DNA of 47,674 nt from Jimgerdemannia flammicorona (lineage: Eukaryota). The stretch is taken from the NCBI GenBank assembly GCA_003990765.1, contig RBNJ01000044.1:1-47674 (forward strand), read 5' to 3'. The position numbers and the translations under genes are program-made. The notes below the pieces were generated by a model. That model saw nothing but the letters and a program-made list of their open reading frames with translations. It ran no database searches and was not told where the DNA came from. Positions 5,620 through 46,804 of the stretch are shown piece after piece. How positions within the stretch are numbered: the first letter of the stretch is position 1; each line of letters begins with the position of its first letter.

Positions 5620-5671
<52 letters not shown>

Positions 5672-9516: not shown

Positions 9517-9548
<32 letters not shown>

Positions 9549-15017: not shown

Positions 15018-16299
15018 AAGCACCTTGCACCGCATCGCCTCATGTCAACGTTGTTCAGTTATTCGTTCCGCCATTTTCAAAATTTAGAAATAATCCAGCT
15101 CCGTCTTTCTCTTCTACAAACTGGGTTGTCCAGTCAAAACCCTTTCCTGGCATATTCTCGCTGGCTTGTAGTTTAGTTTGGCCTTCTTAATATCCCTCCT
15201 CGTGCGTTTTCTTCGGGCCTCTCCCCTGTGTTCCCCAATATCTTCTTCCACGCTTGTACATTGCTTTTTCTTTCATATTTTAGAAGCGAACAACACACAA
15301 GAATGGGCGAAGATTGTGGAGTCTGGGTTACGTGGATTGGGCTGCTGTATCTGACCTTCCTCTGAAGGCGGAACTTTGGAACTCTTTGTTCATTTGATGT
15401 GCCACTCTTTGCTTACGTATTTGCGTTTATCTTCCATAGCTTGTTTCGTGTTTTGTTTCGGTTGAGGCCTCATCTCTTTCTTGTATGTATTTGGATCTCG
15501 TCCATTCTCTCTATGTATACGTATTATAAATGGTGCATTCTTGCGCAGGGATAAATGAAGTGTGTCGAACTTGACTTCCTTTTAAAGTAATGTGACCTGT
15601 CTATTTCACTTTCGATTACACCCGAAAATATCTCTTTGACGGATCTGTGATGAGGGAACCAAATCCCGTATCCCGGTCCTTGGTCCTCACATGATTGTGT
15701 ATTATATATAGAATATATAGAATACAAAAAGGAGACAAAAAGTTCCAATAACGTTAGCTCCGTATAACCGATCGATTTCGGCACTATATAGTTCCATCAG
15801 CAATTGTCTTTTTCGGGGATGGGAAGCCAACCCAAAGACTGAACTCCTTGTCGATATTGACATGCAGAGGGAGGCATAAATGTATTCGCCCTTGCTTCAT
15901 GTATACGTTCCTGATTTTGAGTGACCCGGCCTTGACTTTGCCAAATAATTATCCTCTGTTCAATCACACTGGTTTTCGTGCATCAGCGCATGTCGTAAAT
16001 AGTAGCAAACGTCGCAATGTTCACTGTATCTTTGAAGTGAACGCGCAACACATCCCCCAGCGCATGCAACCATCAAGGCGCCTTTTTAGTGGCAAATTTG
16101 TGACGAGCCCACAACATCGGACTTGTGCTTCGCCCAGCAGTGCAGAACTTCCATCGTGTGACCGACGGTCCCTCGCAATTCCGGCGGTCGGCCATTACTA
16201 GCCACACCGGCTAAACAATGTTAAACTGGGACCCCCCTGAGGCCCAAAGGCCCAAGGACATCTTTACCCAACAAAGTCCAGTAAATTCATAGACACATC

Positions 16300-16728
16300 G
16301 TTATTATATAGCTGTTCCCAGGTGATTTTATGAATAGTTTAGTGATTCTTTTATAGTTTAAATATAGATAATTATTTTAATTAAATATCTTCCAAAGCTT
16401 AAATTAATCATTGATCTTTATCATTATGACTGTATTTAAGGTTTCATTATTATCATTCATTATAATATTAAGATTAATTATAATAAACTGATAAATCAAA
16501 TTATATAATGTAAAAAATTGAAAATTATAATTAAAGTAATATGTAATAATAACTAAGAAAGAGAGAGAGAGAGAGAAAATAATAAAATAAAATAAATAAT
16601 ACAAAAAATAATAAAATGTCAAATAAATGATTGGTGTATATAAAAATAAATAAAGTAGTCTGTAGTTTTAATTAGGTAATTAAATTTATTCAATTTAATC
16701 AAATTAAATAAAATTATAGATTTATTTG
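16300..16728. mobile_element. Short AT-rich degenerate repeat
   Basis: Very AT-rich and CpG-depleted, with sharp edges. Confidence 0.4.
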
Positions 16729-17290
16729 ATTGGAAACACTAGTTCCTCATTCAGAAATCCTTGCACGGGAAGTCACGGATTATAATGGTATCGTTCGCAC
16801 TACGCGGTATAATACAGGTAAAAGGTCTGGAACGATCACACACGTGTCGGTCACTAGTCGTTGGTACCATGTTCGCCAGACATTGTTCATGACGCACAAG
16901 CTTGTAGGTTTTGGCTCTCTATATGCCAAGGCGCCTAGCCGTTTGACGAATAGTCCAAGCGTCTTTGAACTGCAACGGTGACCTTTGCGACAGACAGCTA
17001 TTGTGTGTATATCTATGCTTTGAACCGGCGCCATTGGCCTCGAACATACTTTGGCAACAAATACAAATCGTTTCTCAAACGTATATACAACATATAATGC
17101 ATACTGGCATAGCACTTGGACATCAGGCAATGCCAGCATTATCTACAGACAGCTGGTGTGAGCTAGGGTAATACTGCAAAAACGGCGAACTAGCGATAGA
17201 GAGAAGAATCACGGAAATATATCTGTCAAGCTTGTGTGTTCGTACAAAGAAATACAATGACTCTATCCACAGCATCCACATATACCTATT

Positions 17291-17798
17291 CTATTGACGG
17301 GCATTTTCGCCTTCATCGAGCATAAGATGCGCGGCGTCCGTGGCTGCCCTTTCTCGTGCAACTCTTTCCACAACATCATCGTTCACGACCTACGAAGCGA
17401 ATATTTTTGTTTGAATGATTTTACCGGGCCAACTCGTTACACAGATATATATATATATATATACAAACCTCCAAAATATTGTTGTGCTTGCCCCCGCTTG
17501 ACCCCACATCTCCTGACCAAAAAGTGCCAGACACATATTCTTCCGATCCGGCTTCCACTTTGTCGGAGTCGAGGGTGTTTCCGGCTTCGCGTTGCTGGTA
17601 TTGATGCTGCTGCTGCTCAGGTGGAATCTTGCCGCGGAGCTCGCCGTGGTCGGGGCGATTATCCTTGTCGTCCCACATGTCGCCGTACCCGACCGTAGTC
17701 GGTAGGACGGCTGTGTTGGACAGGGACCGAAGAAGGACCCATTCAGAGCGAGGGCGGAGGGTAGGGCGGATTGGAGTGTAGAGGCGGTAGTAGTTCAT
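17291..17798 (-). CDS. Small two-exon hypothetical protein (142 aa), possibly mitochondrion-targeted
   Basis: Exon 17798-17469 (110 codons), GTTTGT...CGTAG intron, exon 17389-17291 (VVNDDVVERVARERAATDAAHLMLDEGENARQ*). N-terminus is Arg-rich and acid-poor; the body is acidic. Confidence 0.6.
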
Positions 17799-18289
17799 GG
17801 TATTGGTCAATAGTGTCTGCGGAAAAAGCAAAGAGAGATGGGTTTTTGAGAGGTCGCGTGTCATGTGGATATCAAGAGCGATAACGTCATGCCATGCAGG
17901 TCTCAGATCAAACGCCACACCGCATCCCAAAAGATAAATCGAGCTTTTAAAATGTTTCAGGATTTCCAGAATCAAATTAGGTAAGTGTTTACCGCCCTCC
18001 CGAGGGCCACACTTTCTCTGGACAAGCTTTTTCCCATATTGCCAATCAGGAATTTATTTTCTGCGGTCAACGCCAGAATATCTTATACACACTGCGTCCG
18101 TGAACGAAAATATTCAGTAATAAAATTTGTACCAACCAAATTAGCGCTCCGGATGTTTTGCTCGCCGGTCACGATCCTTGAAGGATTCCTTCTAGTAGGC
18201 ACAAAGTTAGTGACTTTCGGCGAGGCGCGTGTCGGCGTTGTCGTCCGCTTCGCACTCGTGCTCTCAGACCTACAGGTTATGTCTTTAGA

Positions 18290-18395
18290 ATTAGAATTGG
18301 AAAATCCGGCAAAGGCTGTGTCCTTAGAATTGAGGAAAAGAGAATCCGGCGAAGGCTGTGTCCTTAGAATTGGAGAAAGAGAATCTGACGAAGGG
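18290..18395. repeat. Imperfect tandem repeat, about 33-40 bp, 3 copies
   Basis: ttagaattg...aatccggc(a/g)aaggctgtgtcc repeated. Confidence 0.8.
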
Positions 18396-18412
18396 AACTC
18401 CCTTGGGACGGC

Positions 18413-18503
18413 TTAGCCAGCGACAAGTAGGTTCAGCATACGAGACTGACTTATGAAGAGAATTGGGGGAAGGGTTATGGAGGAGGATGGCGAGGTAGAG
18501 GCA

Positions 18504-18571
<68 letters not shown>

Positions 18572-21195
18572 CCTTTTTTCCTTTATGGCCGGCATGACAA
18601 TCTGACGCGTCGGCTTAGCAGCCTTCCGGCGCTCATCGTCCTCGTCCGTCTCATGCTCGAACAAAACGGACTCTAGAAGTACCTTGCCACGAGCGAGCCG
18701 CATCGGCATTTCTGTCCTCCTACTTGTACGTTGCGAAAGACACAAAGATACACCACGAGATGGCTTTGAAGACGTTCGTTCAATCCTGCGAAACAGAGAT
18801 GCTCGGCATGAACAATGAAAAATTACGAACATATTCGAATTTCCACGCAATAGTGGTGTCGTATCAATATCATTATAAGATAATATTCACCAAAACGCGT
18901 CCATCTACACCATAGACAAGATTCCTGTTACGAGTAATAAGCCATGCAAATATACCAACTTGTAAATGGGGTCATAAACAGATGTATATTTTTACGGAGC
19001 GTAAAAGAGGACATCGAATTTGCTTTTCGTCAACCATGCGTCTTGAAGAGATCACGCGGAGGCTTGTGAAGAGACGCTTTTCGGCTTCCAGCTTTGTACC
19101 GCGAAGCAAATTATCCCAGCAGACGCTGAACATGAGATACTAGAGACACATTATGCGCAGATTACATTAAGTAATCATAACAATCAAATCCTCGCTTCGC
19201 GAAAAATGAACACTTAATGTATGATCTCCCCCTTCAGTTGCCAATCGGCGTTGCAGAATTCAGTATCATAGTATATACCATAATGTTACCAGCCTCTAGA
19301 TTTCCTTTGGAGCTTATGCAAAGGGGTTTCAAACAAAAGGCATGGGAAGTTAACAAAGAAGAGAAATTTAGGATGTAAATAAACATTAATATCGATACCG
19401 GAAAGAAAATATCACTTTCATTAAACTATCAACCTGGCCCGATCTGTTCTGAAGGCGAGAGACGCGTGGCGAAGGGCGCAAAAACCACGACGTCCTGGAG
19501 TAAGAATATGATTGTGACGCTCCAACCAACGTATAGGCACAAAAACTTTGCCATCTCTGATACCACAGACCCGCGCTGACCAACGAAATCGAAGAATACC
19601 ACAATAGCAAATATTCTGCCATATAAGTAGAGATATGGTCCCGCGCTTTTTCTTGTCTTCCACACGTATTTGTGAGCTTTAGTTAAGCGTCAGGATAGCG
19701 TGATAATAACCCTAGATGTCGAAAGGAATAAGTCTATAGAAATACACTCACGATATAAACCAACGGTATGTTATCATCCAGGTGGATATCTGAGGCACGG
19801 ACCGCGCCAGCATGTTGCTTGCCCATTCCTATATGTGTAGAGGGGGGCGCCACGTGCATATAGCTTGTGAGAAGACAATTTAAATTTATGAATCTCTTTT
19901 TACCACGAAAGTAATCGAGGAATCTAAACGAAAATGAAAAGGTAAGTATCCAACACATTGCGCTTCTCCTACCCTCAACTGTCTCGCATCCTCAATACAC
20001 GTCCCACCCACCAACCCGCCCATCTTCTTTGCCGACTTGACACGCCTGGCTCTCACCTTAGCGACGGAGCCTTTCGTTCGACCAGCGACTTCATGAAGGA
20101 CGACAGGAAGCCTCCGTTCCAAATCGTCATCAAGAAAGGCTCCGTGCCCGAGGTTGTGATCGTTGTCGTTGCTTTTAACAAGTTCCTGGGGAGAAAAGGG
20201 GGCCAGTGGGATGTGAACGACGTTATTCTCTAGCTCGCCAGTCGTGACCCAAGTCCTCAAACCCCGCTGCGTATCAGAATGATGACATATTCTTCAGATC
20301 TTGAAAAGGCCAATCGTTGATCGGATGGATATATATACTTGGTCGCAAACGTAGTTCATTCAACTCTTGATTCCCGCCGAGACTATACAACTGGTAGTCA
20401 GTGGTAAATGTCACATCGGTTGTGGATGGTCAAGGGTATCCCAAGTTCTTGCAACGTATTCTTGTGGATTGGAAAACACGCTAAAGGTTCTAACGCAAAA
20501 ATGAAATAGAAGGATACTTGGCTGATGGTGGCGTCTTGGTGGATCGATAGCTATGCAAGTTGGATACCTACACCATGTTAGCCACCTTAAGAAACCCCTT
20601 TAAATCATCTTTCTCCGCATCCGAGGGGCATTTCGTTACCACTTCCTTCATTTCGGATGTAGCGACGTAATAAAAAGCTAATCACTTCCATTTGCGCAAG
20701 CCTAAGTAGCTAACCCCTCACCCAAACGCCAGGTAAGTGATAATAAAATCAATGAGAAATAGAATAGACTATTTACTTATCCAAAATATCCTAACAAGAA
20801 ACAACCCCTTTTTGAGCCTGAGATGAATGAAGGCTCGATGTTGTCATGAATCGTGGTCTGACGCTCATCATCTTTGACGGTCAGTAAATAGCCCCTCATA
20901 TCTGCGCCTCCCGCGATTGAGACCTCGATTTGAAGAGATACTGCGTTTATGTCGTTTCCGTTAACCGCCGTTGCTGTATTTAAAATTACTTCGTTGGATG
21001 GCGCGCGCGGTTGCATCCCCCGTATGCGTCCATTGAAGTCAATGCCAGGTGCTTGACAGAGTTCTTGGTCGCTTGCTGGAATGTAGATGGATACAAGCGG
21101 ATCAAATTTAAATGGCAGCTATATAGTTTGTTAATTTCTGATAACGTTTGGCGTTCATAGCAAATGTTCGCCTTCATGTGCACGGTTCTTGTCAT
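18413..21195 (-). pseudogene. Heavily decayed gene-like region, cut at its 5' side by a LINE insertion
   Basis: Normal GC and CpG content, broken minus-strand frames (20986-21195, 20777-21016, 19886-20260) and splice-like signals. No recognisable domain. Confidence 0.35.
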
Positions 21196-21990
21196 TTTTT
21201 TTTTTTTTTTTTTTTATAGTCACTTATACTTCACAATTTATTACCAGTCTATCAGATATAAATACAGTACTCTCTTCCACTACCTACCCCCCTAGGGTCC
21301 CCTCCCCCCCCACACACCCTTATGCTTGAACACTATCTTACCACTTACTACTCCAATCCTCCCCCCACTCTGTCCATAAATATTCTATACTAAACAATAC
21401 TAATAATCTCTCTGCAGACCCCATCCCAGCCACCAACCTGACAAGATATCCTCCATCAACCCTTTCTATCTCAACAGCCTCTCTATTAAACCCAAATGCC
21501 TTCCTTTCTCAAAAACAAATAGCCTGTATCCTGCCATCTCCACTTATACAGCTAAAACTCAATCAATAGTGAGCTACTCATTTCCAACTCTCTCCACCAA
21601 TCTATCTCTCAGTTCCTCCTATCAATCTCTCAGTTCCTCCCATCAATCTCTCTCACCATTCTCTCTTCTCACAACACTCAATTGATTCTCAACTGCTAAC
21701 TAAAAGTCTATAAGTATCTTACACTCTTTCAGCCAATATTCTGGTATCTATTCAAACCCTCCTTCCTGTCTTACATTATAATACTCCTTACAGTCAAAGC
21801 TTCCCCCCTCCACAAGGTGACCTGAATGAAAGTTGAGCATAACATTCCTCTACAGTATGACCACCAAACCACCTAGTATTTAGATAGTAGCTATTACTAT
21901 ATCTCTGCATTCTATACCCAAACACCATTCCAGTCCTACTCTTCTCTAATATCTACCATCTGTCAGCCACTAGACCATATATTCTGTCCA
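21195..21990 (-). mobile_element. 5'-truncated L1/Tx1-like LINE 3' end with poly(A) tail (second copy)
   Basis: Poly(T) followed by the same roughly 93-nt tail as 9546-9639, with a homologous CCHC-coding region. Confidence 0.8.
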
Positions 21991-22029
21991 AACTCTCTTA
22001 GACACTCAACCCCATCACTAATATTGAAG

Positions 22030-23068
22030 TCAATTAGAGAAGTATCCCCCAACAATACTATTAAAGATAGCCTGTAATCAAAGCAGTCAGTTGAGATCAC
22101 AGTCCTATGAGTAAGAGTCAGATTCCTGCCAAATGCTCAAATATGATAGTAGGGCATTTCTACTCCATTTGGCTAGAATTTGATATTCTCTTGCTTTGAG
22201 CAAAGTCGACAGCTCTGAGGGGACACAGTCATGATGTAGGGGGTCATTGACTCACTGTTAAGAGGATTTGAAGGCCAGAATAGTGAGGATGCTATCAGAA
22301 TTAGTGGTAATATAAATGGAGTTGCCACTGAAGAGTAGAATACTACCAGAAGAGAGACTGAAGGTAGTAGGACAGAGGAGGGAAATATTGGCACCTGTAG
22401 TTATAGTAGTCAAGGCAGGTGATCTATTAAGATATGCAGTTAGTGCAGAGAGTAACTGTTCAATCAATATATCAACTACTTGGGTATCAGTGGGGGTTGC
22501 CAAAGCTGATACCATAGGATCTGCACTCAGACATTTAGGGCCTGATTTGTTGGTATCAAGACATGTAACCAGAACAGCCTTCTGACCATCTGTAGAAAGG
22601 TCATGATTATGATAGAGTATAATTAGTTGATCTTTGTATAGTGTACATAAGCCAGAAAGATTGGGAATTAATGGGCATATGTGCAGAGAGTCAGATACTG
22701 GAGCCAGAGAGTCAGAAGACAGACCTTGGGACCAGTGAATAGGTGGCATATTGTTGGATAGAGTGGGTAAGTATAAAAACTTAATTGTAGATACAAATTG
22801 CTAAATGACTAGTTGTTGACATATGATGGAATATATGATTGAATGTAAAGTACAAAAAGTACTAGAATATTTACCATAGAAGTAAAGTGGTACTTAAAGT
22901 GGACATATCACTAAAATGCAAACTAACTAAGGTGGTATGGGCATAGAGAAACAATTGAAACTAAGCTAAGCTGCATAATTGTATAAATATTAAGTGAAAG
23001 ATAGATGCATGAATATTAAGTAGCCATGGCCACTTTGCTGCAGTTTGAACTATATTTATAACTATATA
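22030..23068 (-). mobile_element. 5' part of an unclassified repeat with a SAP-domain-like ORF
   Basis: LCTLYKDQLIILYHNHDLSTDGQKAVLVTCL resembles a SAP motif. Terminus and ORF are homologous to 43930-44545. Confidence 0.6.
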
Positions 23069-23618
23069 ATTTTATCAGAATTTCTGTCAGAATTTCTAGT
23101 AGCTTATAGGTATATATATAATAATTTCTCTTCTTTGTCTGAGTCTACTCATTAGACTCAGTACTAAACTTTAGAACTAAAGAAAAGTATACTGAATTAC
23201 ATTACACCATTATTCATTACTCAAATTGATAATATTTTAGGAGATACTCCATAAAGATAGTTAAAGACTTAAGTTTAGGTATAAAAAAGGATATAGAGTC
23301 TTTTAGCAACAACATAAGTATAGTTGTCAATAAAAATACAGACTTATATTTAGTGGTACTAAGGGTAGCTTATTGATTGATGAGATATTCTATCTTATAG
23401 TACTTCTTAAATTCTTATTAATAGTAGAAATCTAGAAATATTAGATCTTTTTAAGATATTATTGAGCTTCATTTAGTTCTGGGTCTCTAGAGATTCATAT
23501 ATTAATAGAAGGTAGTTCAATTGAATTCTATTAGTATTTAATAATCATAAGAATAGTAGTAGTAATTTTGTTTTTAATTTATTTTCAGTATTATTACTAT
23601 TAGAGATAAGTTATCTAT

Positions 23619-24082
23619 TGTGACAGTATAGCCAGATTTCGAAGAAGGAAATAGGGAACAGACACTTGATTGCACCCAGTCCCAAAGTAGTATAGCCATA
23701 TAGTTAGTAGTCCTCGATTCTGCCATTTGCTAAATATTTTGCAAAGTGCAAAATTGAGCTTCTCGATTTAGTATAGTATTTTGCAACTGGCAAAATATTT
23801 CACAAAGTGTTAAATGACTCATAACTTAGCCACATAACCCAGTAACCATCTCATAGCTAGCAAACTTATAAATAACTCAGTATCTTCAAGTGAATAAACC
23901 TCAGATCGAAATAGTTCAAGCAAAGAGATAGCAAAGGAACTAGTAAGCCTGCAGACAGATACACTTCGAACTCACCCACCCTCCCTTGCAACTTCAAGAG
24001 ACTCTGCAAGAGTCAGAACAATTAAGTTTTCAAGATATAGAAATCTGATATACTTTCAAGAGTAAGCATCTGCTATGTTACA
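23619..24082 (+). repeat. 5' LTR (464 bp)
   Basis: TG...CA ends; contains TATAAATA and AATAAA; about 91% identical to the 3' LTR by manual alignment. Confidence 0.95.
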
Positions 24083-24085
24083 ACT

Positions 24086-24100
24086 TGGTGCCCATTGGCT
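24086..24100 (+). other. Putative primer binding site
   Basis: TGGTGCCCATTGG 3 nt after the 5' LTR. TGG complements tRNA CCA; tRNA identity not resolved. Confidence 0.55.
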
Positions 24101-24196
24101 AGTGATTCAAGATGAATCCCTCACTTTCAAGCTAAACAATGAACAACTGCCACTACCTGAACAACCATACAAACCGAGCCCCAATACCCAGACAAG

Positions 24197-25087
24197 ATGG
24201 ATATGAGACCACCAGTATTCCACAGATATACCTCAGATGAATCAATCATCACCTTCATTGATCATTTCGAGCAGTATGCTGCTGTAAGGACCCTGACAGC
24301 AGCACAGCAAGTAGCCCTCATGTCCTTCAGCCTATGAGGTCCTGCCAGAGCAGCATTCACAGCTGCAACCCATGCAGGAAATGATGCTGATGCTATACTG
24401 ACAGCACAGAAGACCTAGCTCCATAATATATATTATATAGATAAGATCAAGCAAGCCCTGAAGGATCAGCTCAATACAATATGCCAAGGAATGAGTGAGG
24501 ATCCAAACACATTCTATACCAGAATTCGATATCAGATAATCCTTGCAGATTATGCTGCTACTATCCGGGATGAAGTAGCTGAAGCAATGTTCATGAAAGA
24601 AGTCCATCCAGAAATAGCTATGGCTATCCACTCATCACCAGTGATTCTGGATCTGCCACAAAAGGTCACCTATGCTCAGCGATACTGGATAGCCAGACAC
24701 CCACAAGACCATATGATAGAGAGAGTTACAGGAGTCAGAATCGAGATACCCAAGGCAACCAGTGTGATCCCTACCACAATGATCAATCAAAACACACCTC
24801 AGCCAAAAGCTATAGAGCAGCAAAAGAACAGTGACCCTATAGAGGAACTTGCCAAGGGGTTTGCCGAAATGACTGCCTATCTGGGAGATGTGGTAAAGGA
24901 AATCCAAGGAAGAGATCACCACCCTGTTCAGAAGTTTGCCACCACCTCAGACAAGAAGAAAGGTACCTGCTACAGCTGTGGAGAAGAAGGCTACTACTCC
25001 TATGAATACATGAGCGAAACCAAGTACAAGGCCCAACTAAGCAATACCACACAAAAACAAGGAGCAGGCCAATACAATTACCTTTGA
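24197..25087 (+). pseudogene. gag: gag
   Basis: MDMRPPVF...FIDHFEQYA; decayed zinc knuckle CYSCGEEGYYSYEY (CxxCxxxGHxxxxC); internal stops. Confidence 0.85.
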
Positions 25088-28000
25088 AGAAATCAAAGAA
25101 TCTGATGAAGAGGAATGAGAGGCCTATCCTGCTCAGACCACCAAGAAGGATGCTTGCAAAGAACCCTACAAGAGACCACCAGGAAGACCCAAGAAGAACC
25201 CAGTGAAAAAGCAGATAGAAACCACCACAGAAAGCCAAGCCGAAGAGATGGACCAAGATATCAAGCTGGAGCAAGCAGTTCAAGATATCATCCAAGGAAC
25301 TACTTCAGCCAGTGAAGGAGAAAAAGAAAAGAAGCTTCACAAGACCAAGACCTTCAAGTATGATATCTTCAAGGATCTCAGTCAACAAAAGGTCAATGCA
25401 ACCTTTGGTCAGCTTGCAGAAATCCCAACATTCAGACAGCAAATGAGGTTTGAACTTACCGAAACAACTAAGGAATAGGGATGGAAGATAACTGAGACCA
25501 ATAACATTCAAGAGGACTCAGGAGAAGAAAGTGAGGACAATTGCAAAACCTCTGCTTATGCAATATGCCAAATCGAAGATAGAATCTTTGAAGCCATCAT
25601 TGATATGGGAGCAGGAGGGTGTCTCCTCAGTAAGAAGGCAGCAGACCGCCTAGGTTGGGATGTGAAAGAAGCAACTAAGCTGGTATTTGTCACAGCTGAT
25701 AGCACAAGAGCCACACCTCTGGGAAAGATCCAAGATGTTCCTGTTAAGATTGGAGGAGCAACCATCCCAGTAGATGTAATTGTAACCAATGCCACCAACT
25801 ATGACATCCTCATCGGCAATCAATGGCTTCACAAAGCCAAGGCAGTAATCAATCTCAATGCTCAGAAGATACAGATCACCTACCAGAGACAGAAGATATG
25901 AATTCCCATCAATGTCAACAAAGAAGTCCTGCCTGAGATGGAGGAAGAAGAGAGCGAGCAAGAGGAAGCTTATATGGTGACTACTCCAAAGAAGAAGAAA
26001 GTTGAATGGATGAGCGAAGAAGAATGGTGCAAGAAGATCACAGAAGGTTATGCCCCACAAAGAGTCTGTCCTCATGGAATCAAGATGTACTGTATGGAGC
26101 ATATCAATAATTGCTACCAGTACACCATCAGAACCAAGAAGACCTACCAGGAAAGAAGGCAGAAAGCTCTCGACAAACAGATCAGGAAAGAAGAGAAGGA
26201 GGAAGATGACAAACCACCAGCCCTCCTGGAGGACAGTGATGATGAAGAAGAAATCAAGGTCAAGATTCGAAAGATCCACCCTGATACAGTCTTGCCAGAA
26301 TACAAGTCAGAAAATACAGCTGGAATGGACATCGCCACAGTAGTAGAGACTGTACTGGAACCCCAGACAACTACCGTACTCGCAACTGGACTGGAGATGA
26401 CCATCCCAAAGGATCATGTTGGGATTCTCAAGATAAGAAGCAGCCTGGCTAGAAGCGAAATCACAATTGAAGGAGGAGTCATCAATTCAGACTATACTGG
26501 AAAAATTCTACTCATTGCTAGGAACCACAATCCCTTAATCCCATTTCTAGTCAAGAAGAAGGACTGATTGGCACAAATATTGATCTTTCCAATCCTACAA
26601 CCAAAGATCATAGAAGTTAAGAAGCTGGAGGAAACAAAAAGAGGAAAGAAAGAATTTGGATCCACAGGAAGAGGAGTATTCGCCAGCACCAAGATCGCTG
26701 AACTCGAGCATAAGAAGGAGGAAAACACAAGCAAGCACAGCTACACCATCAGAAATGAATTTCCACTCAAGAAAGAACTCAAGGAAATACTCTACAAATT
26801 TGAAGATGTCCTTGCTACAGACTTCAAGGATACAAAGGAAAGACCCCACACTACTATTATGAAGTAGATACTGGAGACACTGAACCAATTTATCAGTAGG
26901 CAAGACCTGTCCCACCAGCCTACCAAGAATGGCTCAGAGAAGAAATCAAGCAGATGGAAGAAGCCAGCTTCATTAAAGAAGCAAGCAGCCCCTGGTCCTC
27001 ACCTGTTGTACTAGCCCTGAAAAAAGGCAGCAAGCCTGGAGAATTTGCCTCAAGACTCTGTGTTGACTACAGAAAGCTCAACATGGTTACCAAGAAGGAT
27101 CGCCAACCACTGCTCCTCATCAATGACATCCTCATAATACTGGGAGACAAAGCACAGTACTATAGCACTGGACTTATACTCAGGATTCTACCAAATCGGA
27201 CTCACAGACATGGCAAGTGAAAAATCAGCTTTCATCACCCCAGACAGAACCTACGTCTACCTATGAATGCCATTTGGAATGTGCAATACACTAGCAAGCT
27301 TTTAGCAAATGATGAACAAAATCTTCCACTATAACATGGGAAGATGGATGATGGTCTATGTTGATGATGTAATCATCTACAGCCAGACACCAGAAGAACA
27401 CCTACAGCATATCCAGTAGATAATGGAAAGACTGAGAAAGCATGGCCTATACATCAAGCCCAAAAAATGCAAATTTGCAGAAATTGAGATCTCCTATCTC
27501 GGCCACATCATCAACCAAGAAGGAACATACACAGACCCCCTCAAGATATAAGCAGTGGCAGCATACCCAAGACCCACCACTGTTACAGAAGCCCAAGCCT
27601 TCATGGGACTTGCCTCCTATTATTGCAGATTTATTAGAGGATTTTCTAATATTGTGGGACCAATCTACAAACTTAACAAGAAGGATACCAAGTTCCAGTG
27701 GACTGGCAGACAACAAAAAGCATTTGATGAACTCAAGGTCAGACTGACCCAGGCATCCATCCTCAGAAGACCTGACTGGACTCAAGAATTCATCTTATAG
27801 ACTGATATGTACAAGTGCACAAGGACTAGGAGTAGTTCTAGCTCAAAAGAAAGATAAAGTGGAGTATGTCATCACATACCTCAGCCACAGAACCCGAGGA
27901 GCTAAAAAAGAATATAAATCCTACAAGTTGGAATGCCTCACAGTCATCTGGGCCATAGAAATATTCCACTACTACTTGGCTGGAAGACACTTCACCATCC

Positions 28001-29381
28001 AAACAGACCACTCAGCTCTTACATATCTGGCTACTGACAACTGGACAACCCAAAGGAATCTATGCCAGATGGATAATGAAGTTGCAAGCTTATGATGTAA
28101 CCATTGTTCACTGCTCTGGAAGAACCAATGCCAATGCAGATGCCCTCTCACGGACACCCTGAACTACTTTCAACCAATAAATCAATCATGAATAAGGAGC
28201 TCTACTATGGAATCATCACATACCTGGGACAGAAATAGATGCCCCAACATCTGGAAGAATGGATATAAACAATTATCAACAGAACATGGAAACAATTTGA
28301 AACTGATGGAGAAACACTAAAGAAAGGAAAACTACTAGTTATACCAGAATACAAGAAGGAGCAAGTGATGAAATCAGTATACAAACTTGGCCATCTAGGA
28401 GGAACAAATATATATGACAAAGCAAGAAGAACAATATGGTGGCCAGGGATGGAGGAAGATATCAGACAATTCGCCAAGACCTGCGACAAATGCCAGAAAC
28501 AGAAATAAGACCAACGAAATCAAGCCCCAGGATTAGCACACATAGAACGAGTATCTTTCGCCCACATTACAATGGATGTAATCAGCCCTCTACCCTTGAC
28601 TTTTACTGGCAACTGATACATCATTGTCATCATAGACCTTTTTACAAAATAGATAGAAGCAGGACCTCTTATGGAAGCCAATGCACAGTCAATCGCTGAT
28701 TTCTTTCACAAAGAAATCATCTGTCAGTTCAAGACCCCAACACAAGTAACTACAGATAGAGGAATGGAATTTGTGAACCAGTTCTTTGAAGTTCTCTACA
28801 AGAAGTACAAGATCCAGCATATCTGGACCACAGCATATCATTCACAAGGAAATGGACAAGTAGAAAGGACCAACAAAACTCTCAAGAATATTATTGCCAA
28901 GATCTGCAATAACTATGAGAACTGGGATCACTATCTGCCAATAGCATTATCTGCTCTCCAGGATATCCGATCACAAAGTACCCACTTTACCCCTCGAGAA
29001 ATGCTGTTTGGAGAAGAATGTTCTCAGGGAACCCTATCTTCCAATAGAGATGCCATATGGAAACATGTGGACATGGAAATATGGAGACTACACCAAATCA
29101 GGAAGAAGGCTGAGGATTACATATCCAAGGTGCAGACACTACAATGGAGGAATGCGGAAAAGACCCACAAACTCTTGGAGATTATCAAGATAGGAGACAA
29201 AGTTCTGGTGTATCGGAATATGGTAGAAGCTTCATGGTCACGAAAACTGGAGCCCAAGTGGGAAGGACCTTACCTTGTGCAAGATATAAAAGGGACCACC
29301 TTTTGGCTACGAAAACCCTCAGGCATAATAATTCCCACTACCATTCACCGAAACTGACTCAAGAAATATCATGGCCAGTAA
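25083..29381 (+). pseudogene. pol: pol (protease, dUTPase, RT, RNase H, integrase; no chromodomain seen)
   Basis: AIIDMGAG and DILIGNQWL (protease); SPWSSPVV, RLCVDYRKLN, MPFG, VYVDD (RT); TDHSAL (RNase H); TDRGMEF, QGNGQVER, KLEPKWEGPY (integrase). Confidence 0.95.
26253..26669 (+). pseudogene. dut: Trimeric-type dUTPase domain within pol
   Basis: All five motifs recognisable: AGMDI, RSSLA, GGVINSDYTG, D*LAQ (CGA to TGA), RGKKEFGSTG. In frame with the protease. Confidence 0.93.
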
Positions 29382-29832
29382 CAAAAGTACTGCAATGGCA
29401 CTTAAGATCACTAGTGCTGCCCAAAGAGCCATTGAGAGACAATGGTGCATCACCAAGCCTCTGACCATAGAGGAGTCTTATGATAGTATCCAAAGCATCA
29501 TACAGACTCATCTCTCTCAAATCTCACACTTCAAGGCCTAACAGTATCAAAATGAATTCCAAGAGTACTTCAAACTTGGCCAAGTACTCAACTAAGACCC
29601 AGAAATGACCAAAGAAAATTGGATAGCAGAATGCCAGCTCTCCTATTCCCAGATCATCATTGCTAAGAGAATCCACAAGCTATTCCGAGAGGATAAACCA
29701 GCACTAGCCCACCTGCGAGGAGTGACTCCCTCAGATTTCAACTGAGTCAGGCGACACCATTGGGAAACAGTAATGCAACAAATCGCACAATATAAGACCA
29801 TACAGACCTTTGAAGCCTGGGAGTTTGAATAG
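29371..29832 (+). pseudogene. Accessory ORF3 (about 153 aa) between integrase and the 3' LTR
   Basis: ATG overlaps the end of pol. One frame, MASNKSTAMALK...QEYFKLGQVL...IAKRIHKLF...FEAWEFE*, with three stops each explicable by a single C-to-T change. Confidence 0.75.
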
Positions 29833-29869
29833 ATACTTTAAGAATAAGATCATCTATTCAGAAGGCAGT

Positions 29870-30335
29870 TATGACAGTATAGCCAGATTTGGAAGAAGGA
29901 AATAGAGAATAGATACTTGATCACACCCAGTCTCAAAGTAGTATAGCCACATAGTTAGCAGTCCTCAATTCTGCTATTTGCTAAATATTTTGCAAAGTGC
30001 AAGATCAAGCTTCTCAATTTAGTATAGCATTTCGCAACTGGTGAAATATTTTGCAAAGTGTTAAATGACTCATAACTTAGCCATGTAACTCAGTAATCAT
30101 CTCATAGCTAGCAAACTTGTATAAATAACTCAGTATCTTCAAGTGAATAAACCTCAGATTGAAATAGTTTAAGTAAAGAGATAGCAAAGGAACTAGTAAG
30201 CCTGCAGGCAGATACACTTCGAACTCACCCACCCTCCCCTACAACTTCAAGAGACTCTGTGAGAGTCAGAACAGTCAAGTTTTCAAGATAGAGAAATCCG
30301 ATATACTTTCAAGAGTAAGTGTCTGCTACGTTACA
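29870..30335 (+). repeat. 3' LTR (466 bp)
   Basis: TA...CA ends (TG mutated to TA); direct repeat of 23619-24082. Confidence 0.95.
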
Positions 30336-30339
30336 CTAT

Positions 30340-33300
30340 ATAGGATAGTTTCAGAATAATTATACTTCTCTTTTTTAGAATTTTTAGAAGTATGACTGTC
30401 CTTCTGAAATTTCATTGAAATTTTCATTATATATACCAGATATCTGTATTGAGTTACTGCTTTTTCTATATTTAGTAAAAGATTGTCTTCTTTTTCTCAA
30501 GGAGTATCATACTCAAAGTATTCCTTCCATCTTATGGAATAGTATTAGATAGACTTGGCAGCTAATCTAAATTAGTAATTCTTGTAATCCAGAATATGAT
30601 CTACCTTATATTTTAATTACTGATCAATAATTACTAGATCTAGAGATAGTATAGTTCTTCTTTCTAAGATATTCAAACTATATAACTGAAGTTGAGAAAT
30701 ATAGAACATTGAGTGAATTCTTTTTAATATTGCTGGAAGTATCTTGAGCTCCTTTTAAGTTTTATCAGTTCTCTTATCTCAGTTCTAAAAAACAATAGAA
30801 CCTATCTTTAATAGATCTAAATATATTAAGAAAACCTCATCTTGGTAGAATATCTATTATAGACTTACCAACTACAGACCTACTATATAATTGGTCAAAT
30901 ACTATAAGACCTCAGAATAGACTTATATTTGTATAATACTAGCCTATTCCAAAGAAACACTCTTGCTGTAGTCAGACTTTATACTATCTATAAATACAAT
31001 ATTATAGCTCTGATCTGGACCCTATTCTCTCCAAATAACTTCCAGAGAATGATTATATATATCTACCTATCTGAGCAGTATCAATCATATTGAAGTCCTA
31101 TTCTCTAAGAAAGAAGAAGAGTTACTAAAATAGAGTAATTCAGATACTAGAGAAGATAATGGTACAGATATAGATATAGAAGATCTCAATAGATACTATA
31201 ATGATGACTAAAGGATAGTCTGAAGACAGACTATACTTTAGTGAAGCTAATGTAATAAGTGAATAACATAGTTATCTATATCTAGTTATTTATATATATT
31301 ACTACTTATATATATAATTAGTCAAAAGTACTAAATCAGATATATTAATCTATATTCTAAGAATACATCTGTATTCATCAAATATACCTATATCTACCAG
31401 ATATATCTGTGTTCTGTAAATATACCTAGTCACTCACTTCTCTATATATTATTATTATATATTCTATAGTTAGCTATATAGTAATTAAATAGTAACTATA
31501 ACTATATAAAATACTTCAGAGATAAGAGTTAATAAACCTCAGTCTTAAAAGTCTGCCTACTATACTTTGAGGGATATATCTACTAAAAGTCCCTTAATCT
31601 AAAAATAATTCCAATACTTAAGAGAAATATCTACTCTAAAATTACTTTTAGAAAATTGTGAGCTTGATATTCTTTTTCACTCTGGTCTACTTCTCAATAT
31701 AAAGAAGTTTACTATATTTTTGATCCATTTATCAGATTAAGCCAGAAGTCTGTTATATTTTAAATCTATATTAAGTAAGGCAGCTAGAGGATTAGCACTC
31801 AGACCCAGCAGTGGGTCTAGATGAACTTAGAGTCCCTGTATTGGGAGAGGAGATCTGTCAGGTTTTGGCAGCAACAAGTCTGGAGACAGCTCCAAAGGAA
31901 GATAGATTTCTATGGAATTTTTGAAATTGGATGGTTGTTATAGAGGTTATACTGGAGGAGATGATATAAATATATAATGAATTTATTGGCTCAGAGATCT
32001 GGATTGGAGGGCAGCACTTGGAGCTTATGGCTCTGTTGTACAAGAACAAGAAGAGCAGAGAGAATTGGAAGAACTGGAGGCTGATCATACTTCTGAATAT
32101 AGATTGTAAGTTAGTGATAAGATTTTGATGGTCAGGTTGCAAGAGATGGCTCAGCAGAGTATTAGAGATTGAGCAGAGGGTCTTTGTCAGAGATTATTTA
32201 ATATATGATAGGATCGCTTGGGTCTATAGTATCATTGAGGGAGCTCACACTACTAGGGTTGATAGTTAACTAGTATTTCTGGACCAAGAAAAGGCTTATG
32301 ATAGAGTTAGATATATATGGCTGGAGGGGGTGTTGAAGCAAATAGGTATTCCCCAAGAGTTTAGGAAATTACTGATTAGTTTATTAGAGGGAAGTCAGGT
32401 GGCTATTATAGTGAATAGATATAGAGGAGAGTCATTTCCTCTAGGCAGAGAAGTGCTATAGAGAGATCCACTGTTATCAATTCTTTATATCCTCTCATTG
32501 GAGCCATTTTTGGATAAAATATAGTACTGAGTTAGGAGGTTGAACATTCTAGGAGTGAACTGGAAGGTGGGGGCCTTTGCTGATGATATGGTTGTCAGGC
32601 TGAGCTCTGTAGAGGATATGGCAGTACTGAAGAGTATAGTGGAATAGTAGGAGAGGATGTGATTGAGACAGTTGTCCCAATAGAAAAAGTAGTCCATTAT
32701 CTGGAGATCTATTTTTCAGTATATAGTTCTCTATTACATATCTCAGAGATAATAGAAACAGATGCTATTTGAGTAGGAGGATGCTCTCTTAAGATAGAGT
32801 GGCTAATATATCTCTCTGGTGGAAAGAGTGATAGTGTTGAATATATATTGTCTGTCTAAGCTATAGTATATGGAGTATTACTTGGACTTCTGTATTAACT
32901 AAGTTATTTGATATTTTTGAATAATCTATATCATCTGAGTTATCTGCCTAATAAAAAAGTCTGCCAAATTATCCATATAATATTAAGATCAAGAGTGTTA
33001 TATAGATAATTGCATTCTTTTGAAAACAGATCATTATGTAGAAATTGCATATATAAAGAAGCTGCTTATACTATTAAGAATTATTGACTACTATCTAAGA
33101 AGAAAACTGTTAAAATTATCAAATTGCTGCTATATTTAAAAATCTATCTTAATAAAGAAATTGTCTGAATTATCCATATTATATAAATTTGCACAAGAAA
33201 TCATTAAATATATTATTACTTTTGACAAAATAACTAGAGGCTCAAGCCAATCTATATAGCAGTTTCAATCTTATAATCTATCTTTATTGAGCTGATATAT

Positions 33301-34080
33301 TATAATATAAAGAGAATTTGATTAAATAAGTTAGAAAGAATAATATTGAGTATTTATTATAAATAGCTTTATTATTTAAATTTTTATTATTTAGAAATTA
33401 TTAAAAAATTTATTTATAAATTTATAGCTCTATATAATTATTTAAATTATATAAATATAACTAATACTTTTTAGAAGTTCTAAACAAATTTTATTTTTGA
33501 TTATATATATATATTATAAATTTAATAGTATTTATTTTTGGATCTCAATATTTATAAAGGTCAATAAAACTTTAATATACTTTTGCCCCTTACTATATAT
33601 AAGTAAGTTAAAAATATTACTATGTTTAAAAAAGATAATAGTATACTATACATAATTATTATAATAATAATAACCAAATTGAAAACAATATATATATTTT
33701 ATATTTATGATGGAATTACTTTAAAAATAGTAATAAGATAACTTCAGATAATGATAAAGTAGTAGGTATACTAGGTAATAATAATAATAATATATACAGA
33801 CATATATATATAATGAAATACTAAGAACGGAATACAGTGTAATAAGTAAAAAATAGAGAAAGTAATTGTAGTAGCTAAAATAGATATCAAAGGTGAGATA
33901 GGAGTATTATCTATAGTATTAAAGTATATGAATTAATATAACTATCAAATCATTTAAATCAAATTGCTCAACTATCTCTATATATGAATTACAGCATAAT
34001 ATATTTAAGGGTCCTCTAGAAGTATTACAGAAACTGTCTAGATCAGAAAGTCAAAAAGAGTCTGGCATTGTAGGGCACCA
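30340..34080. mobile_element. AT-rich degenerate transposon block
   Basis: Nearly CpG-free and TA-rich; includes the LINE RT fragment. Confidence 0.6.
31780..32890 (+). mobile_element. L1/Tx1-like LINE reverse transcriptase fragment
   Basis: Manual translation: NWRLIILLNIDCK, FLDQEKAYDRV, L*RDPLLSILYILSLEPFL (decayed QGDPLSP), AFADD. Confidence 0.88.
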
Positions 34081-35046
34081 TCTATTTCATTATAAATTTC
34101 TTTTGTCTGCTTAGATTGGCCGCCTTAGACGCCGTAAGATATCCAACTGCTTACAGTCAACTCTCCTGAGCTTGGGATCTACTCTCTATATTTCATGAGC
34201 AATAGTTTTCGTAGTCCCATCAATATAATAGTCGCATGCGGAATAGCTGGGACACGACAATGCGAGCCTGCGTAATATCCTTTATAGTTACAGGATGCGC
34301 AACGAAATTACTCGCTGGCCACGATACATTATTCTATTGGTGCTTTTGGCTAACACCCTCTGGGTCTATTCTCTATGTAATCGCTGGGACAATTCACGTG
34401 AGGGCGCTGAAAGCAACGAATATCAAATGTTAAAACGTTTTTTTATTTTATTTTATTTTTTGCCAAATAATTCTGGCGGGATTATCAGGAGCCACACTCA
34501 AGCTCTCGCCATTCGACTTGAAATGGTACATTCTCCTATGCTCCTGAATGAGATTGAATTATCGTGGCGGATAATCATGAACATATCGCGGTGTCTAGGC
34601 GCCGTGGCAGGAGTCTAAGGTCATTTTATCTCATACTATAGTATTCTTTGGACCCAGTGATGAGTAGAGTGCTAGCGATTGGGCGCCACTCCCTTCCAAC
34701 TGGTGACCAAAGTGGAGTGGTAGCGCTATGCCTCAATGCATAGGATTGTCTGGGGGACATGGATCCCGTCCGCAAAGTGTAGTTGAAAAATGTCTACGAA
34801 CTAGTTTCTTAAAATATAGTTTATTAAAATATAGTTTATTAAAATATTTACAGTCGACCCTTCGTTTTCCGTAACTACGAAGCCTAAAGCACGGAAAATA
34901 TGCACAAGTTCGTGGTGCATACATGTTTCTCGGAAATTCGTGTTCCGGTCTACGAAACGTCGAATCTTCCATGAAAAAGGGCATACACTGTGTGCCAATC
35001 GCGTCGTATCCAAGGCTAACTAAATGCTGAACAGATCGTACATGAA

Positions 35047-37423
35047 CTACTCTTCCGGCCCTTCTTCCTTCGTTTTTTCCAACACCAGCGGTGCTTCCCT
35101 GAAAAAGGATAGAATTGTCCTACGCCTGTTAGAGTCAACCGGATTCTTCGTCTCGAGCGTGAACCCATAAGCGTGTTCGCCCATTTGCGCCAGATCCGTG
35201 CCAAGCTCCTCCTCGCCTTGCCTGAGACGAAGGTGAAGGCCGGGGATTTTGTCCATGATCCAGAGGATGGCGTAGCTGATTCCAAAAAGAAAGGTGGTCA
35301 ACAACAGATACCACACGCACGATAAAAAAATGTCACGATTGTGCCACACTTACGTTATGAAGAAGGACCAGCCCGAGACGGTGCCGATGGCAGCAAATTG
35401 AATGAGGATCTGAATGCACTGGCCGTCGAGGCAGCCGCCGGACGGGACGACGTCTCCAGGATTATAGGACAGACCGATGATGGCCCGCTCCGCAAAGATG
35501 CCTGTGATGGTTAGACCGACAAAGCCGCCAACGTAGTGAACTGGAGGGGAGGCGTAATTCGGAAACCCAACCAAATTGCATATTGTTAGACGGTGTGTAT
35601 TAAAGGAAATGCATCACACTGCGTCGGCCCAACTTACTGGCGAAAACATCCAACGCGTCGTCGAACTCGAATCTCTTCTTGCACGCGACCGCAAAGTTGC
35701 ATACGACGGCACCGACGAAACCGAACACGAGCGAGCTGGACGTACTGACGAACCCGGCTCCTGGAGTGATAGTCGCCAGTCCTGCGACAGCTCCAGTGCA
35801 GAAGCCGACGATCGACCACTTGCGCGTCCGGCCCCAGTCGATGAGGACCCACGTCATACCCCTGAGTTCACGATTTCGAAATGGTTAGGACGCCTTGGGT
35901 GATCAGCTACGGCTGTGCACGATATGCAGGATAATGTAGCAGGTGAAACACGACATACCCGACGCAACCCGACATGTGTGTGTTGATCAGGGCTTGGACG
36001 CTGCGAGCGTTGGCAGCCAGAGCGCTTCCACCGTTGAAGCCGAACCATCCAAACCTTATGCGCAAGGATGAGAATCGAAAATAAATTCGATGTTTTATAA
36101 GTGTCGTTTGCGACAATGACTAACGGCAATAAATAAATAAATAAATAAATAATAAAACCAACCAGAGAAGCGCTAGGCCGAGGAACACGAAGGAGACGTT
36201 GTGGGGAGTATGGTTGCTGGACCCGGCGTCCTTGCGTTTGCCAAGAACCAAAGCATATGCGACTGACATCCGATGCAGGAAAAAAAAAAGAACACTTATT
36301 ATATAATCTGTGCTACGATTCAAACAAAGCGTTATTTCAGGTAGTAGCAGAAGCTCACCGGCAGCGGCGCCGCTCGCAATGTGCACGGGAGTGCCACCGG
36401 CATAATCCATAACGCCGAGGAGGGCTAACCAGCCGTGCGGGCCCCACACCCAGCAGGTGACAATGTCTGTGAGCGAGCATGAATAGTTGGGTAGAGGTCA
36501 GGTCATTTACTATATTGAAAAACCAAAGTTGCTTGTGTGCCCAAAAATTTACTTCTTTTTTAATACAAACCATAAACCAACGTGGACCACACGAACAAGA
36601 AGACAATGGCCGAACCCAGCGACGTACGCTCAGCGGCGGCACCGAACGCGAGCGCTGGGGTGATGCAAGCAAACATCATCTGGAAGACCATGAAGACGGA
36701 TGCCGGGATGGTAGGAGCGCTAACGTATGGGTCCCGGCCGACGCCGCGAAGGACCACGTGAGCTTTTGAAGGTAGGTAACGTAGGTTGCGACCAGTTTTA
36801 TTACAAAGTGTCAAACATAAAATAATGAGGTATCAAATAATATAATAAAATAAAATTATTAAAATACCAAAATCGCCGATGAAGTAAGATCCGGATTCAG
36901 AGAAAGTCAGGCTGTAGCCAAAGAGATACCACTAGGTCCCACGATAGGTAAACAAGAAATATGGTTAGTATTTTTTCCGTATGGAGACACCCGCTCTCAG
37001 AACCTACGGGAAGAGGCGTACAAGTCCTCACCTGGAGCGAAACCACGCCAACACTCAGGACCGTGAGGTACATGAGTGAGAGTGCATTTTTTGTCCTGGC
37101 GAGTCCAGCGTAGAAGAAACCCAGTCCGGGGCACTATCGTGAGGCGATGAGTACAGAAAGTTAGATTTGCTTGTCAAACAACACTGCGCGAACTGCAGGA
37201 GGACAACAATTTTCAATTGTCATGCCTACCATCAGGAACACGAGGGCCGTGCTGACCTATATAACGGCAGACGCAAAAAGGGGGAGGAGTGGGGGTTGAT
37301 AGGTTACTCATCATTTTCTTCATACACGTCTCCAACACTCAATCCAGTAAACAACCCATCACTCACGATAGTCCATGAGACATCGCCGTCGTTGATTGCT
37401 ATCTGTGTTGTCGAATTAGACAT
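35047..37423 (-). CDS. Ammonium transporter (Amt/MEP family), multi-exon
   Basis: MSNSTT...TALVFLMCPGLGFFYAGLARTKNAL; FQMMFACITPAL; DYAGGTPVHIASG; FGWFGFNGGS; GLATITPGAG; DDALDVFA/VHYVGG. Both conserved His residues present; short introns. Confidence 0.96.
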
Positions 37424-38353
37424 GAGAAGAAATGTTCGCCAAGAGGTCAAGGAGTAAAATTCAAATACGAAACTTGAATATTATATATTTGCTTCTCGCT
37501 GTCCTGTTTTTTATAAGGCTATCTGAACCCAATCCGTCGTACCCAATTCGGAATTGGCCGCATTTGTGTGATAAGACCCTTACCGGAGATTATCTTCCCT
37601 ACATTTTGGTGCTACGTGACGGCGGTCACTCGTCGCCTCGATAATTCCCACGTTGTCTACGATAATTATTTTCGCCGCGGTTCGCCCTGCCATTTTCGGA
37701 AATCCATCCAGTAACCCCACGGGGAGCAGAAAACCACGTACACAGTATGCTGAACCTTCCAGGCATACCTTGTTATCTACCATCGCTACGGCGCAAATTG
37801 TGTGTGACAAGAGTGGTCTCCAAAGTTATTATTTCTCTGATTGTGTCTTGGTTGGAGGTCACGTGTAGGAACCGTGCTATATAGTAGTATAAGTTGAGGT
37901 ATCCTGGTAGCAGGTTTTTTTTTTTTTTTTTTTTTTTTTCTAAAGCGGCACTGCGCATGTCCGCGCTGTGGGATGGGCTCCAGGGGTGAGGAAAATTTGA
38001 TGCGGGGAAATGATTTGGTCAAAAGGACTATCGAAGCATGAGAATCTCACATATCTTACATTGATCTAAGGTACCGTTGTGCTTTGACGCAATTGTGGAA
38101 TAATGCGCCCAACGTCACACCGAATAAGCAAATTGTGAAGACTTGTGCTAATTGAGTTTAATTCAAGACAACAATAATATGTTACGGAGATGTTCGGTTG
38201 GATTACCCATACACTTCACACCCCGTTTCCCACGCAAATATACTGTAGAGGACAACACGCTTTACAACCGTGCCACATTTCCGCTTCTGGACTTCTCCGT
38301 ACTACGTCTTACCAATAAATAGCCGCCCTCCTATCATTATAAGCCCATCCGTC

Positions 38354-38439
38354 GGCAATCACCCGACGTCCACATTAAACAGGTAATGTCCCGTACGTCC
38401 ACATTAAACGGGCAATGACCCGTACGTCCACATTGAACG
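38354..38439. repeat. 29-bp tandem repeat, 3 copies
   Basis: ggcaatgacccgtacgtccacattaaacg-like unit; acgtccacatt core at 38366, 38395, 38424. Confidence 0.85.
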
Positions 38440-38452
38440 TTTTCTTATCTTT

Positions 38453-42700: not shown

Positions 42701-42732
<32 letters not shown>

Positions 42733-46797: not shown

Positions 46798-46804
46798 AGT
46801 TCTT

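Follow-up and report, generated by a model that had tools for sequence, protein, structure and literature searches.

A polarised, CpG-dominated C-to-T footprint in a dead Ty3/gypsy element of a Mucoromycota fungus

Introduction

Canonical repeat-induced point mutation (RIP) depends on a RID-class methyltransferase, takes place in the sexual phase and acts on duplications above a threshold of length and identity. Contig RBNJ01000044.1, a stretch of 47,674 nucleotides of fungal DNA that was analysed as a whole and is called the window here, contains a retrotransposon at 23619–30335 whose two long terminal repeats (LTRs) differ almost exclusively by transitions. A preliminary description of the locus called this pattern 'RIP-like', in an apparently non-Dikarya fungus. 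The locus thus raises the question of which process converted C to T in this element, whether that process is RIP, and how far it reaches into the surrounding DNA.

Results

Substitutions between the two LTRs

A direct-repeat search of the window recovers a single pair, 23618/9–24082 and 29869/70–30335, with 90.8% identity across 467 columns (blastn). The pair and its flanks are as follows:

23615–23618, plus strand: target-site duplication CTAT, left copy, read from the LTR alignment
23619–24082, plus strand: 5' LTR, 464 bp, TG..CA ends, GC 0.37, 5 CpG remaining
29870–30335, plus strand: 3' LTR, 466 bp, GC 0.37, 4 CpG remaining
30336–30339, plus strand: target-site duplication CTAT, right copy, read from the LTR alignment

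The matching CTAT flanks indicate a single insertion. Counted column by column, the LTRs differ by 41 substitutions and one 2-bp indel. Thirty-nine of the substitutions are transitions and two are transversions (23640 C/G and 24038 T/G), numbers identical to those first estimated. Sequence contexts were sorted by hand from pentamers and then recounted by script. Twenty changes lie in CpG context: seven reciprocal pairs, TG in one LTR and CA in the other, account for 14 of them, and six are single. The non-CpG transitions comprise 11 of CpA or TpG against TpA, five at CpC and three at CpT, so that the preliminary tally of about 20 CpG, 11 CA/TA or TG/TA and 8 CC or CT changes is reproduced (20, 11 and 8). 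The seven reciprocal pairs indicate ancestral CpGs that were struck on opposite strands in the two LTRs.

The overall transition bias is solid: at a transition fraction of two thirds, two or fewer transversions among 41 changes have a probability of 1.4e-5. For the 21 non-CpG changes the corresponding values are P = 1e-4, 0.013, 0.075 and 0.18 at transition fractions of 0.5, 0.67, 0.75 and 0.8, and the non-CpG excess is moderately supported by the LTR pair alone. By itself the pair carries no direction of change. If its differences are taken as C>T, the change per cytosine is 20/56 at CpG, 11/112 at CpA, 5/56 at CpC and 3/150 at CpT, and CpA and CpC together differ from CpT (Fisher P = 0.004). 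No preference for a 5' neighbour, including TCG, is seen in the LTR pair. The T/A states are balanced, with 18 in one LTR and 21 in the other and, by strand, 24 C/T and 15 G/A, and strand-coherent runs are absent from the LTR pair (runs test P = 0.42 and 0.52, combined 0.40, in a small sample of 18 and 21 sites). The even split and the lack of runs are as expected from independent events after insertion.

Direction of change in the coding region

Between the LTRs, the remains of a coding region can be followed on the plus strand:

24419–25087, plus strand: Gag-like open reading frame (ORF), from its translation, with a degraded zinc-knuckle-like stretch at the end
25566–25832, plus strand: retroviral-type aspartic protease domain (PF13975 1e-10, PF08284 5.9e-10)
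26292–26528, plus strand: dUTPase domain within pol, with the protease on one side and the reverse transcriptase on the other (PF00692 8.5e-15)
26858–27700, plus strand: reverse-transcriptase region with frameshifts and stops; polyprotein homologues bearing PF00078 align throughout (tblastn)
27811–28053, plus strand: RNase H domain (PF17917 1e-22)
28146–29372, plus strand: integrase made up of H2C2 zinc finger (PF17921 4.8e-17), core (also matched by Pfam) and C-terminal part, all in a single frame that 6 stops interrupt

Judged from this architecture, the element at 23619–30335 is a dead Ty3/gypsy retrotransposon with an internal dUTPase, and its boundaries are exactly those originally given. 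It has paired LTRs with TG..CA ends and a 4-bp target-site duplication, and its domains follow the order protease, reverse transcriptase, RNase H, integrase; the protease, RNase H and integrase parts are recognised by Pfam and the reverse transcriptase by its homologues. The Gag-like ORF matched zero Pfam families, and the motif at its end may be a zinc knuckle. Pfam also gave no match for the reverse-transcriptase ORF at 26900–27220. The integrase is 72% identical over 409 aa to P0121, an intact metagenomic integrase of 433 aa. Metagenome fragments at 75–80% identity show that this dUTPase-bearing gypsy family is widespread in environmental samples.

Changes were polarised by comparing the broken ORFs with intact relatives (P0121, P0179, P0190, P0192, P0195, P0199 and P0203; 69–80% identity) and with distant ones, and codons were kept only where close and distant relatives concur, which left 285. 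Thirty-six of these are altered in the window copy: 22 by G:C>A:T, one by A:T>G:C, eight by transversion and three by multi-step changes, while two R>TGA codons are ambiguous between CGA>TGA and, less likely, AGA>TGA. Against 242 non-synonymous opportunities for G:C>A:T, the unchanged codons offer 258 for A:T>G:C and 1234 for transversions, which makes G:C>A:T about 20 times as frequent per opportunity as A:T>G:C. By context, the changes number 8(+2)/23 at CpG, 6/78 at CpA, 7/93 at CpC and 1/72 at CpT. In a stricter rerun, which used tblastn with all homologues over the whole element and required eight or more sequences with a majority of 80% or higher (193 codons), we found 13(+1) G:C>A:T, one A:T>G:C and six transversions, of which five are L>I; by context, the counts are CpG 5/13, CpA 5/60, CpC 3/70 and CpT 0/49. 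The polarised C-to-T change proposed from the first inspection is borne out by the conserved codons, with 22–24 G:C>A:T against one A:T>G:C.

Two independent data sets therefore concur on the change per cytosine, which is about 0.36–0.43 at CpG, 0.04–0.10 at CpA and CpC, and 0–0.02 at CpT; all other classes of change stay below about 0.01 per site (about 0.4–0.7%). CpG is struck 4–5 times harder than any other context, and CpA and CpC about 5 times harder than CpT. Ten stops can be compared with homologues: four stand opposite R (TGA), two opposite Q (TAA/TAG), one opposite W (TAG) and two opposite K or I, which implies transversion or misalignment, and one is uninformative. With seven of ten opposite R, Q or W, this agrees with the earlier view that the stops derive mostly from CGA, CAG, CAA and TGG; the His>Tyr changes also noted then are seen at 28350, 28380 and 26858. 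In the protease-dUTPase part (25701–26652), 9 of 11 polarised changes read G>A along the coding strand, and the integrase has both C>T (8) and G>A (5); the counts are not normalised per strand opportunity, and the contrast may reflect codon composition only.

CpG loss is confined to repeat blocks

The ratio of observed to expected CpG is about 1.0 in the gene blocks of the window (1–2400, 5060–8160, 10900–21180 and 33830–43900) and 0–0.2 in five repeat blocks, to which no strand is assigned:

2428–5059: CpG-free AT-rich block, 0 CpG against 33 expected, GC 0.23, passes RIP indices
8166–10894: CpG-free block with an old LTR-family fragment at 8960–9141 (minus strand)
21183–23640: CpG-free repeat block left of the element, 1 CpG against about 63 expected, with repeats common to 9525–10158 and 43930–44430
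30329–33828: CpG-free block right of the element, 1 CpG against about 68 expected, GC 0.13–0.41
43914–47212: CpG-depleted repeat block, 4 CpG against about 91 expected

Outside the element, about 6 CpG remain in these five blocks together, against about 300 expected, a roughly 50-fold difference in CpG retention between gene and repeat blocks. The borders between CpG-normal and CpG-free blocks fall within about 250 bp. Within its CpG-free surroundings the element retains 56 CpG (observed/expected 0.19), and its observed/expected TG+CA is 1.25. Repeats, and not genes, thus combine CpG depletion with a gain of TpG and CpA, and the sister copies, at the seven LTR pairs, carry reciprocal TG/CA states at the same dinucleotide. 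GC in the window is bimodal, 0.10–0.30 versus 0.40–0.55; some CpG-free stretches hold GC near 0.40 (for example 21251–22750) and others lie at 0.10–0.30.

Their repetition in the window and the paralogous contigs suggest that the CpG-free blocks other than the element may be old transposons. Repeats at 70–85% identity connect 9525–10158 with 21195–21850, 22555–22682 with 44301–44430 (inverted) and 23008–23068 with 43930–43989 (inverted); none of these further repeat families between CpG-free blocks has a recognisable protein domain. The AT-rich flank at 23078–23305 partially matches one contig of the public run X1, with several small insertions; the contig's word depth of about 6600 suggests a highly abundant related repeat or transcript. 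Within a CpG-normal gene block, a CpG-free stretch of 467 bp at 16299–16766 (GC 0.18) may represent either an old insertion of small size or AT-rich spacer DNA between genes. Poly-T runs of 50–75 bases occur in CpG-normal gene blocks at 5620–5672, 18505–18580 and 42709–42760.

Older copies and paralogues

The old LTR-family fragment at 8960–9141 has a GC of 0.28, versus 0.37 in the twin LTRs. Measured against the states common to the twin LTRs, it shows 17 G:C>A:T, 9 A:T>G:C and 16 transversions (26:16). Other repeat pairs of the window have transition:transversion counts of 103:78, 27:5 and 19:8, the last from a tandem duplication in a CpG-normal block (41504–41615 and 41709–41820, 76% identity). 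The description of the mutations as transition-only thus applies to the young LTR pair and not to the older copies. Relative to the window, paralogous contigs from two public runs show 310:77 and 97:29 transitions to transversions, a ratio of 3.3–4.0. Two possible outgroups were set aside. The old LTR fragment (GC 0.28) is too decayed for parsimony. Contigs of the public runs that match the 5' LTR depart from it exactly at the twin-variable sites 23659 and 23671 (among 40 of 448 differences listed); the simplest reading makes them the 3' LTR or near-identical copies, and they carry no polarity. No meaning attaches to stretches left uncovered by these runs, and the small shares in soil and root metatranscriptomes support no claim about habitat.

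The host

Two host ORFs were used to place the organism. A Crinkler/P-loop ORF at 2–919 (minus strand) has 171 protein matches, the best of which, at 50–55% identity, are to proteins of Gigaspora, Funneliformis, Ambispora, Rhizophagus, Mortierellomycotina, Calcarisporiella and Jimgerdemannia. For a gene encoding a fatty acyl-CoA reductase, the first exon (39128–39526, minus strand) is 77% identical to a protein of Jimgerdemannia flammicorona, with insects next at about 35% (14 matches); the whole gene has 48–76% identity to two Jimgerdemannia proteins. By these protein matches the host is a Mucoromycota fungus outside the Dikarya, as had been presumed, with its nearest named relative in Endogonales (Jimgerdemannia). 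An ascomycete with ordinary RIP is ruled out by the same matches.

The reductase gene (38393–39526, minus strand; NAD_binding_4) is spread over at least three frames, presumably owing to introns, and its close named relatives are only from Jimgerdemannia. A CpG-free AT-rich block lies between two genes, at 2–2176 (minus strand) and 5267–5773 (plus strand), that each carry the ubiquitin-like N-terminal domain of Crinklers. In one of them this domain is fused to a P-loop-like region with 50–55% identity to large families of Glomeromycotina, Mortierellomycotina and Endogonales.

Discussion

The spectrum of change, its direction, the hierarchy of contexts and the sharp domains of CpG loss are direct observations on the window. 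To explain the spectrum, we favour 5-methylcytosine (5mC) restricted to repeats, strong at CG and weaker at CH (H being A, C or T), followed by deamination, and we put the probability of this explanation at roughly 0.55. A Ty3/gypsy element with a dUTPase would have inserted once into a pre-existing repeat block of a Mucoromycota genome. Cytosines would be methylated in the repeat blocks and not in the gene blocks, almost fully at CG and less so at CH, chiefly CA and CC. The element would then be eroded as 5mC deaminates to T, whether spontaneously or promoted by a methyltransferase: CpG would decay about 4–5 times faster per cytosine than CpA or CpC, while CpT changes, A:T>G:C changes and transversions would be rare. 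Old copies would drift towards CpG-free, AT-rich DNA. Methylation and deamination would account for the dominance of CpG, for the reciprocal TG/CA pairs and the excess of TG+CA, and for the way in which the loss stops at domain borders and leaves genes untouched. Non-CG methylation would be required for the component at CpA and CpC. The candidate enzymes, by analogy with Phycomyces, are of DNMT1 type and DIM-2 type.

By its shape the process belongs with a known kind, the decay of methylated repeats, for which there is a measured example from the same lineage, and not with RIP. In Phycomyces blakesleeanus (Mucoromycotina), which belongs to the same subphylum-level lineage as the host, 5mC is reported almost only in repeats, with enrichment at CG and CHH sites and the highest levels on LTR elements; DNMT1 and a homologue of DIM2 are reported from its genome (Lax et al. 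2024, PMC11258239; PMC7862722). Non-CG methylation, one of the alternatives put forward in the preliminary description, therefore has a published precedent (PMC11258239). What is described for Phycomyces is methylation and not a mutational footprint, whereas here the footprint is read from sequence alone. Transposons of R. irregularis are likewise described as having high CG methylation in a bimodal pattern (PMC8647823). C>T bias confined to repeats, with a CpG signature and an excess of TpG and CpA, is reported from Basidiomycota, Tuber and others with DNMT1/DNMT5 or Dim-2 (Amselem 2015, PMC4352252; Horns 2012, PMC3318451), as seen here; unlike the pattern reported for Agaricomycotina and Ustilaginomycotina (Horns 2012, PMC3318451), CpA and CpC in our element stand about 5-fold above CpT, and our host is Mucoromycotina-like.

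Several observations weigh against decay of methylated repeats. In the LTR pair alone the non-CpG excess is not significant (P = 0.075–0.18) under the family-wide transition:transversion null of 3.3–4.0. CHG and CHH change alike (5/74 and 14/244, a small sample), so that CHG is not spared, whereas the enrichment described in Phycomyces does not include CHG (PMC11258239). The old LTR fragment has the A/T state at five of seven polarisable twin-variable transition sites, two of the five being CpG; simple parsimony would take these for T>C or A>G changes in one of the LTRs, the alternative being parallel decay in the GC-poor fragment. Five of the 6–8 conserved-codon transversions are exchanges among L, I, V and M that may predate the insertion, which makes the transversion baseline uncertain. 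Finally, a Pfam scan of 84 ORFs (at least 45 aa) from the other CpG-free blocks found no transposon domain, its only hits being the margin of a Crinkler gene and a single weak domain of unknown function (DUF).

Canonical RIP is not supported as the cause. Like RIP in Neurospora crassa, the process gives polarised G:C>A:T in duplicated DNA (22–24 versus 1 in one codon set, 13–14 versus 1 in the other), premature stops and AT-rich end products. In Neurospora, however, the preferred site is CpA, and here CpG changes at 0.36–0.43 per cytosine against 0.08–0.10 for CpA. RIP is indicated by TpA/ApT of at least 0.89 and (CpA+TpG)/(ApC+GpT) of at most 1.03; the element, at 0.73 and 1.57, fails both. 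Strand-coherent clusters of mutations are likewise missing from either copy (18 and 21 sites). The 'RIP-like' label fails on these three counts. The broader wording that accompanied it, a repeat-directed C-to-T process of broad context, survives in that the change is polarised and extends beyond CpG (about 8–10% at CpA and CpC against 0–2% at CpT), though without the shape of RIP.

A true analogue of RIP, an active and possibly premeiotic process that detects duplications, requires RID or DIM-2, converts C to T in repeats and prefers CpG > CpA ~ CpC > CpT, would share this direction and breadth of context, and we consider it unlikely. CpA and CpC change per site far more often than transversions arise, and the repeats' implied equilibrium GC is near 0.1, against 0.29–0.40 in the CpG-normal non-coding DNA of the window. 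The older flanking blocks do pass the RIP indices: TpA/ApT minus (CpA+TpG)/(ApC+GpT) exceeds 0 in 9 of 48 one-kb windows, eight of the nine in CpG-free blocks. A bimodal GC distribution, as found here, is a hallmark of RIP in Ascomycota. Beyond the failed indices, the CpG preference and the lack of runs, this analogue is opposed by CpG loss that extends over sequence for which no second copy was found in the window, and that stops at sharp domain borders and not at LTR edges. Published surveys point both ways. A composite-RIP-index signal is reported, with caveats, from Entomophthorales (eLife 2024, PMC11105155), and arbuscular mycorrhizal fungi are said to have RID-class genes (PMC8298701, citing Bewick 2019). 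A kingdom-wide k-mer screen, on the other hand, reports repeat-directed signatures in Ascomycota only (PMC12543289), although it seeks enriched k-mers and CpG loss would not register; RIP signatures are also reported as undetected in Mucoromycotina (PMC8647823, citing Venice 2020). The Entomophthorales resemble our host in being non-Dikarya with Ty3-rich repeats and windows passing a RIP index, but belong to the phylum Zoopagomycota, and the account given of them relies on dinucleotide indices and not on a polarised or context-resolved spectrum (PMC11105155). In an ascomycete, a DIM-2 methyltransferase acting on heterochromatic repeats is described as raising non-CG C>T without RID (review PMC13297926), and the likeness here is the non-CG C>T in repeats. 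It is tempting to see in the window an Endogonales-like Mucoromycotina fungus in which a repeat- or heterochromatin-directed C-to-T process reaches well beyond CpG (CpG > CpA ~ CpC >> CpT) and turns old transposons into CpG-free, AT-rich blocks that pass RIP indices. Such a process would do the work of RIP, or of DIM-2-dependent mutagenesis, in a fungus beyond the Dikarya, for which no screen has reported one to date; this idea is a tentative one, and we would not expect it to hold.

Somewhat less probable again is that only the CpG component is repeat-specific, through CG methylation, and that the non-CpG C>T changes are the ordinary AT-biased neutral spectrum of this genome. The weakness of the LTR-only non-CpG excess at transition fractions of 0.75–0.8 and the overall paralogue ratio of 3.3–4.0 are consistent with this idea, and many Mucoromycota genomes are AT-rich. 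However, an excess of about 20 to 1 of G:C>A:T implies the equilibrium GC near 0.1 mentioned above, yet CpG-normal non-coding stretches stand at 0.29–0.40; moreover, plain deamination of unmethylated cytosine would not be expected to strike CpA and CpC about 5 times as often as CpT. The differences might instead predate or accompany integration, through deaminase editing of the cDNA, reverse-transcriptase errors or the joining of recombinant LTRs from different elements. Unequal LTRs could in principle result from editing after plus-strand strong-stop synthesis, but such editing would load one strand of one LTR, whereas the changes seen here divide 18/21 by LTR and 24/15 by C/T and G/A. The CTAT flanks match, favouring a single insertion, and the internal region has the same spectrum. 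Such an origin is very improbable, and we reject cDNA editing and recombinant LTRs in particular, given how symmetrical the changes are and given the target-site duplication.

Our literature search returned no description of the mutational footprint of repeat methylation in Mucoromycota, and nothing on transposon mutation spectra or methylation in Endogonales. The window offers a very clear, context-resolved and polarised footprint in a group where repeat methylation has been measured for few members. If the CpA and CpC component is not specific to repeats, what remains is ordinary decay of methylated CpG in a lineage where it is expected. If that component proves repeat-specific genome-wide, genome defence of the DIM-2/RIP type would extend to early-diverging fungi, and it would help to explain how elements are inactivated in the large, transposon-rich genomes of mycorrhizal Mucoromycota.

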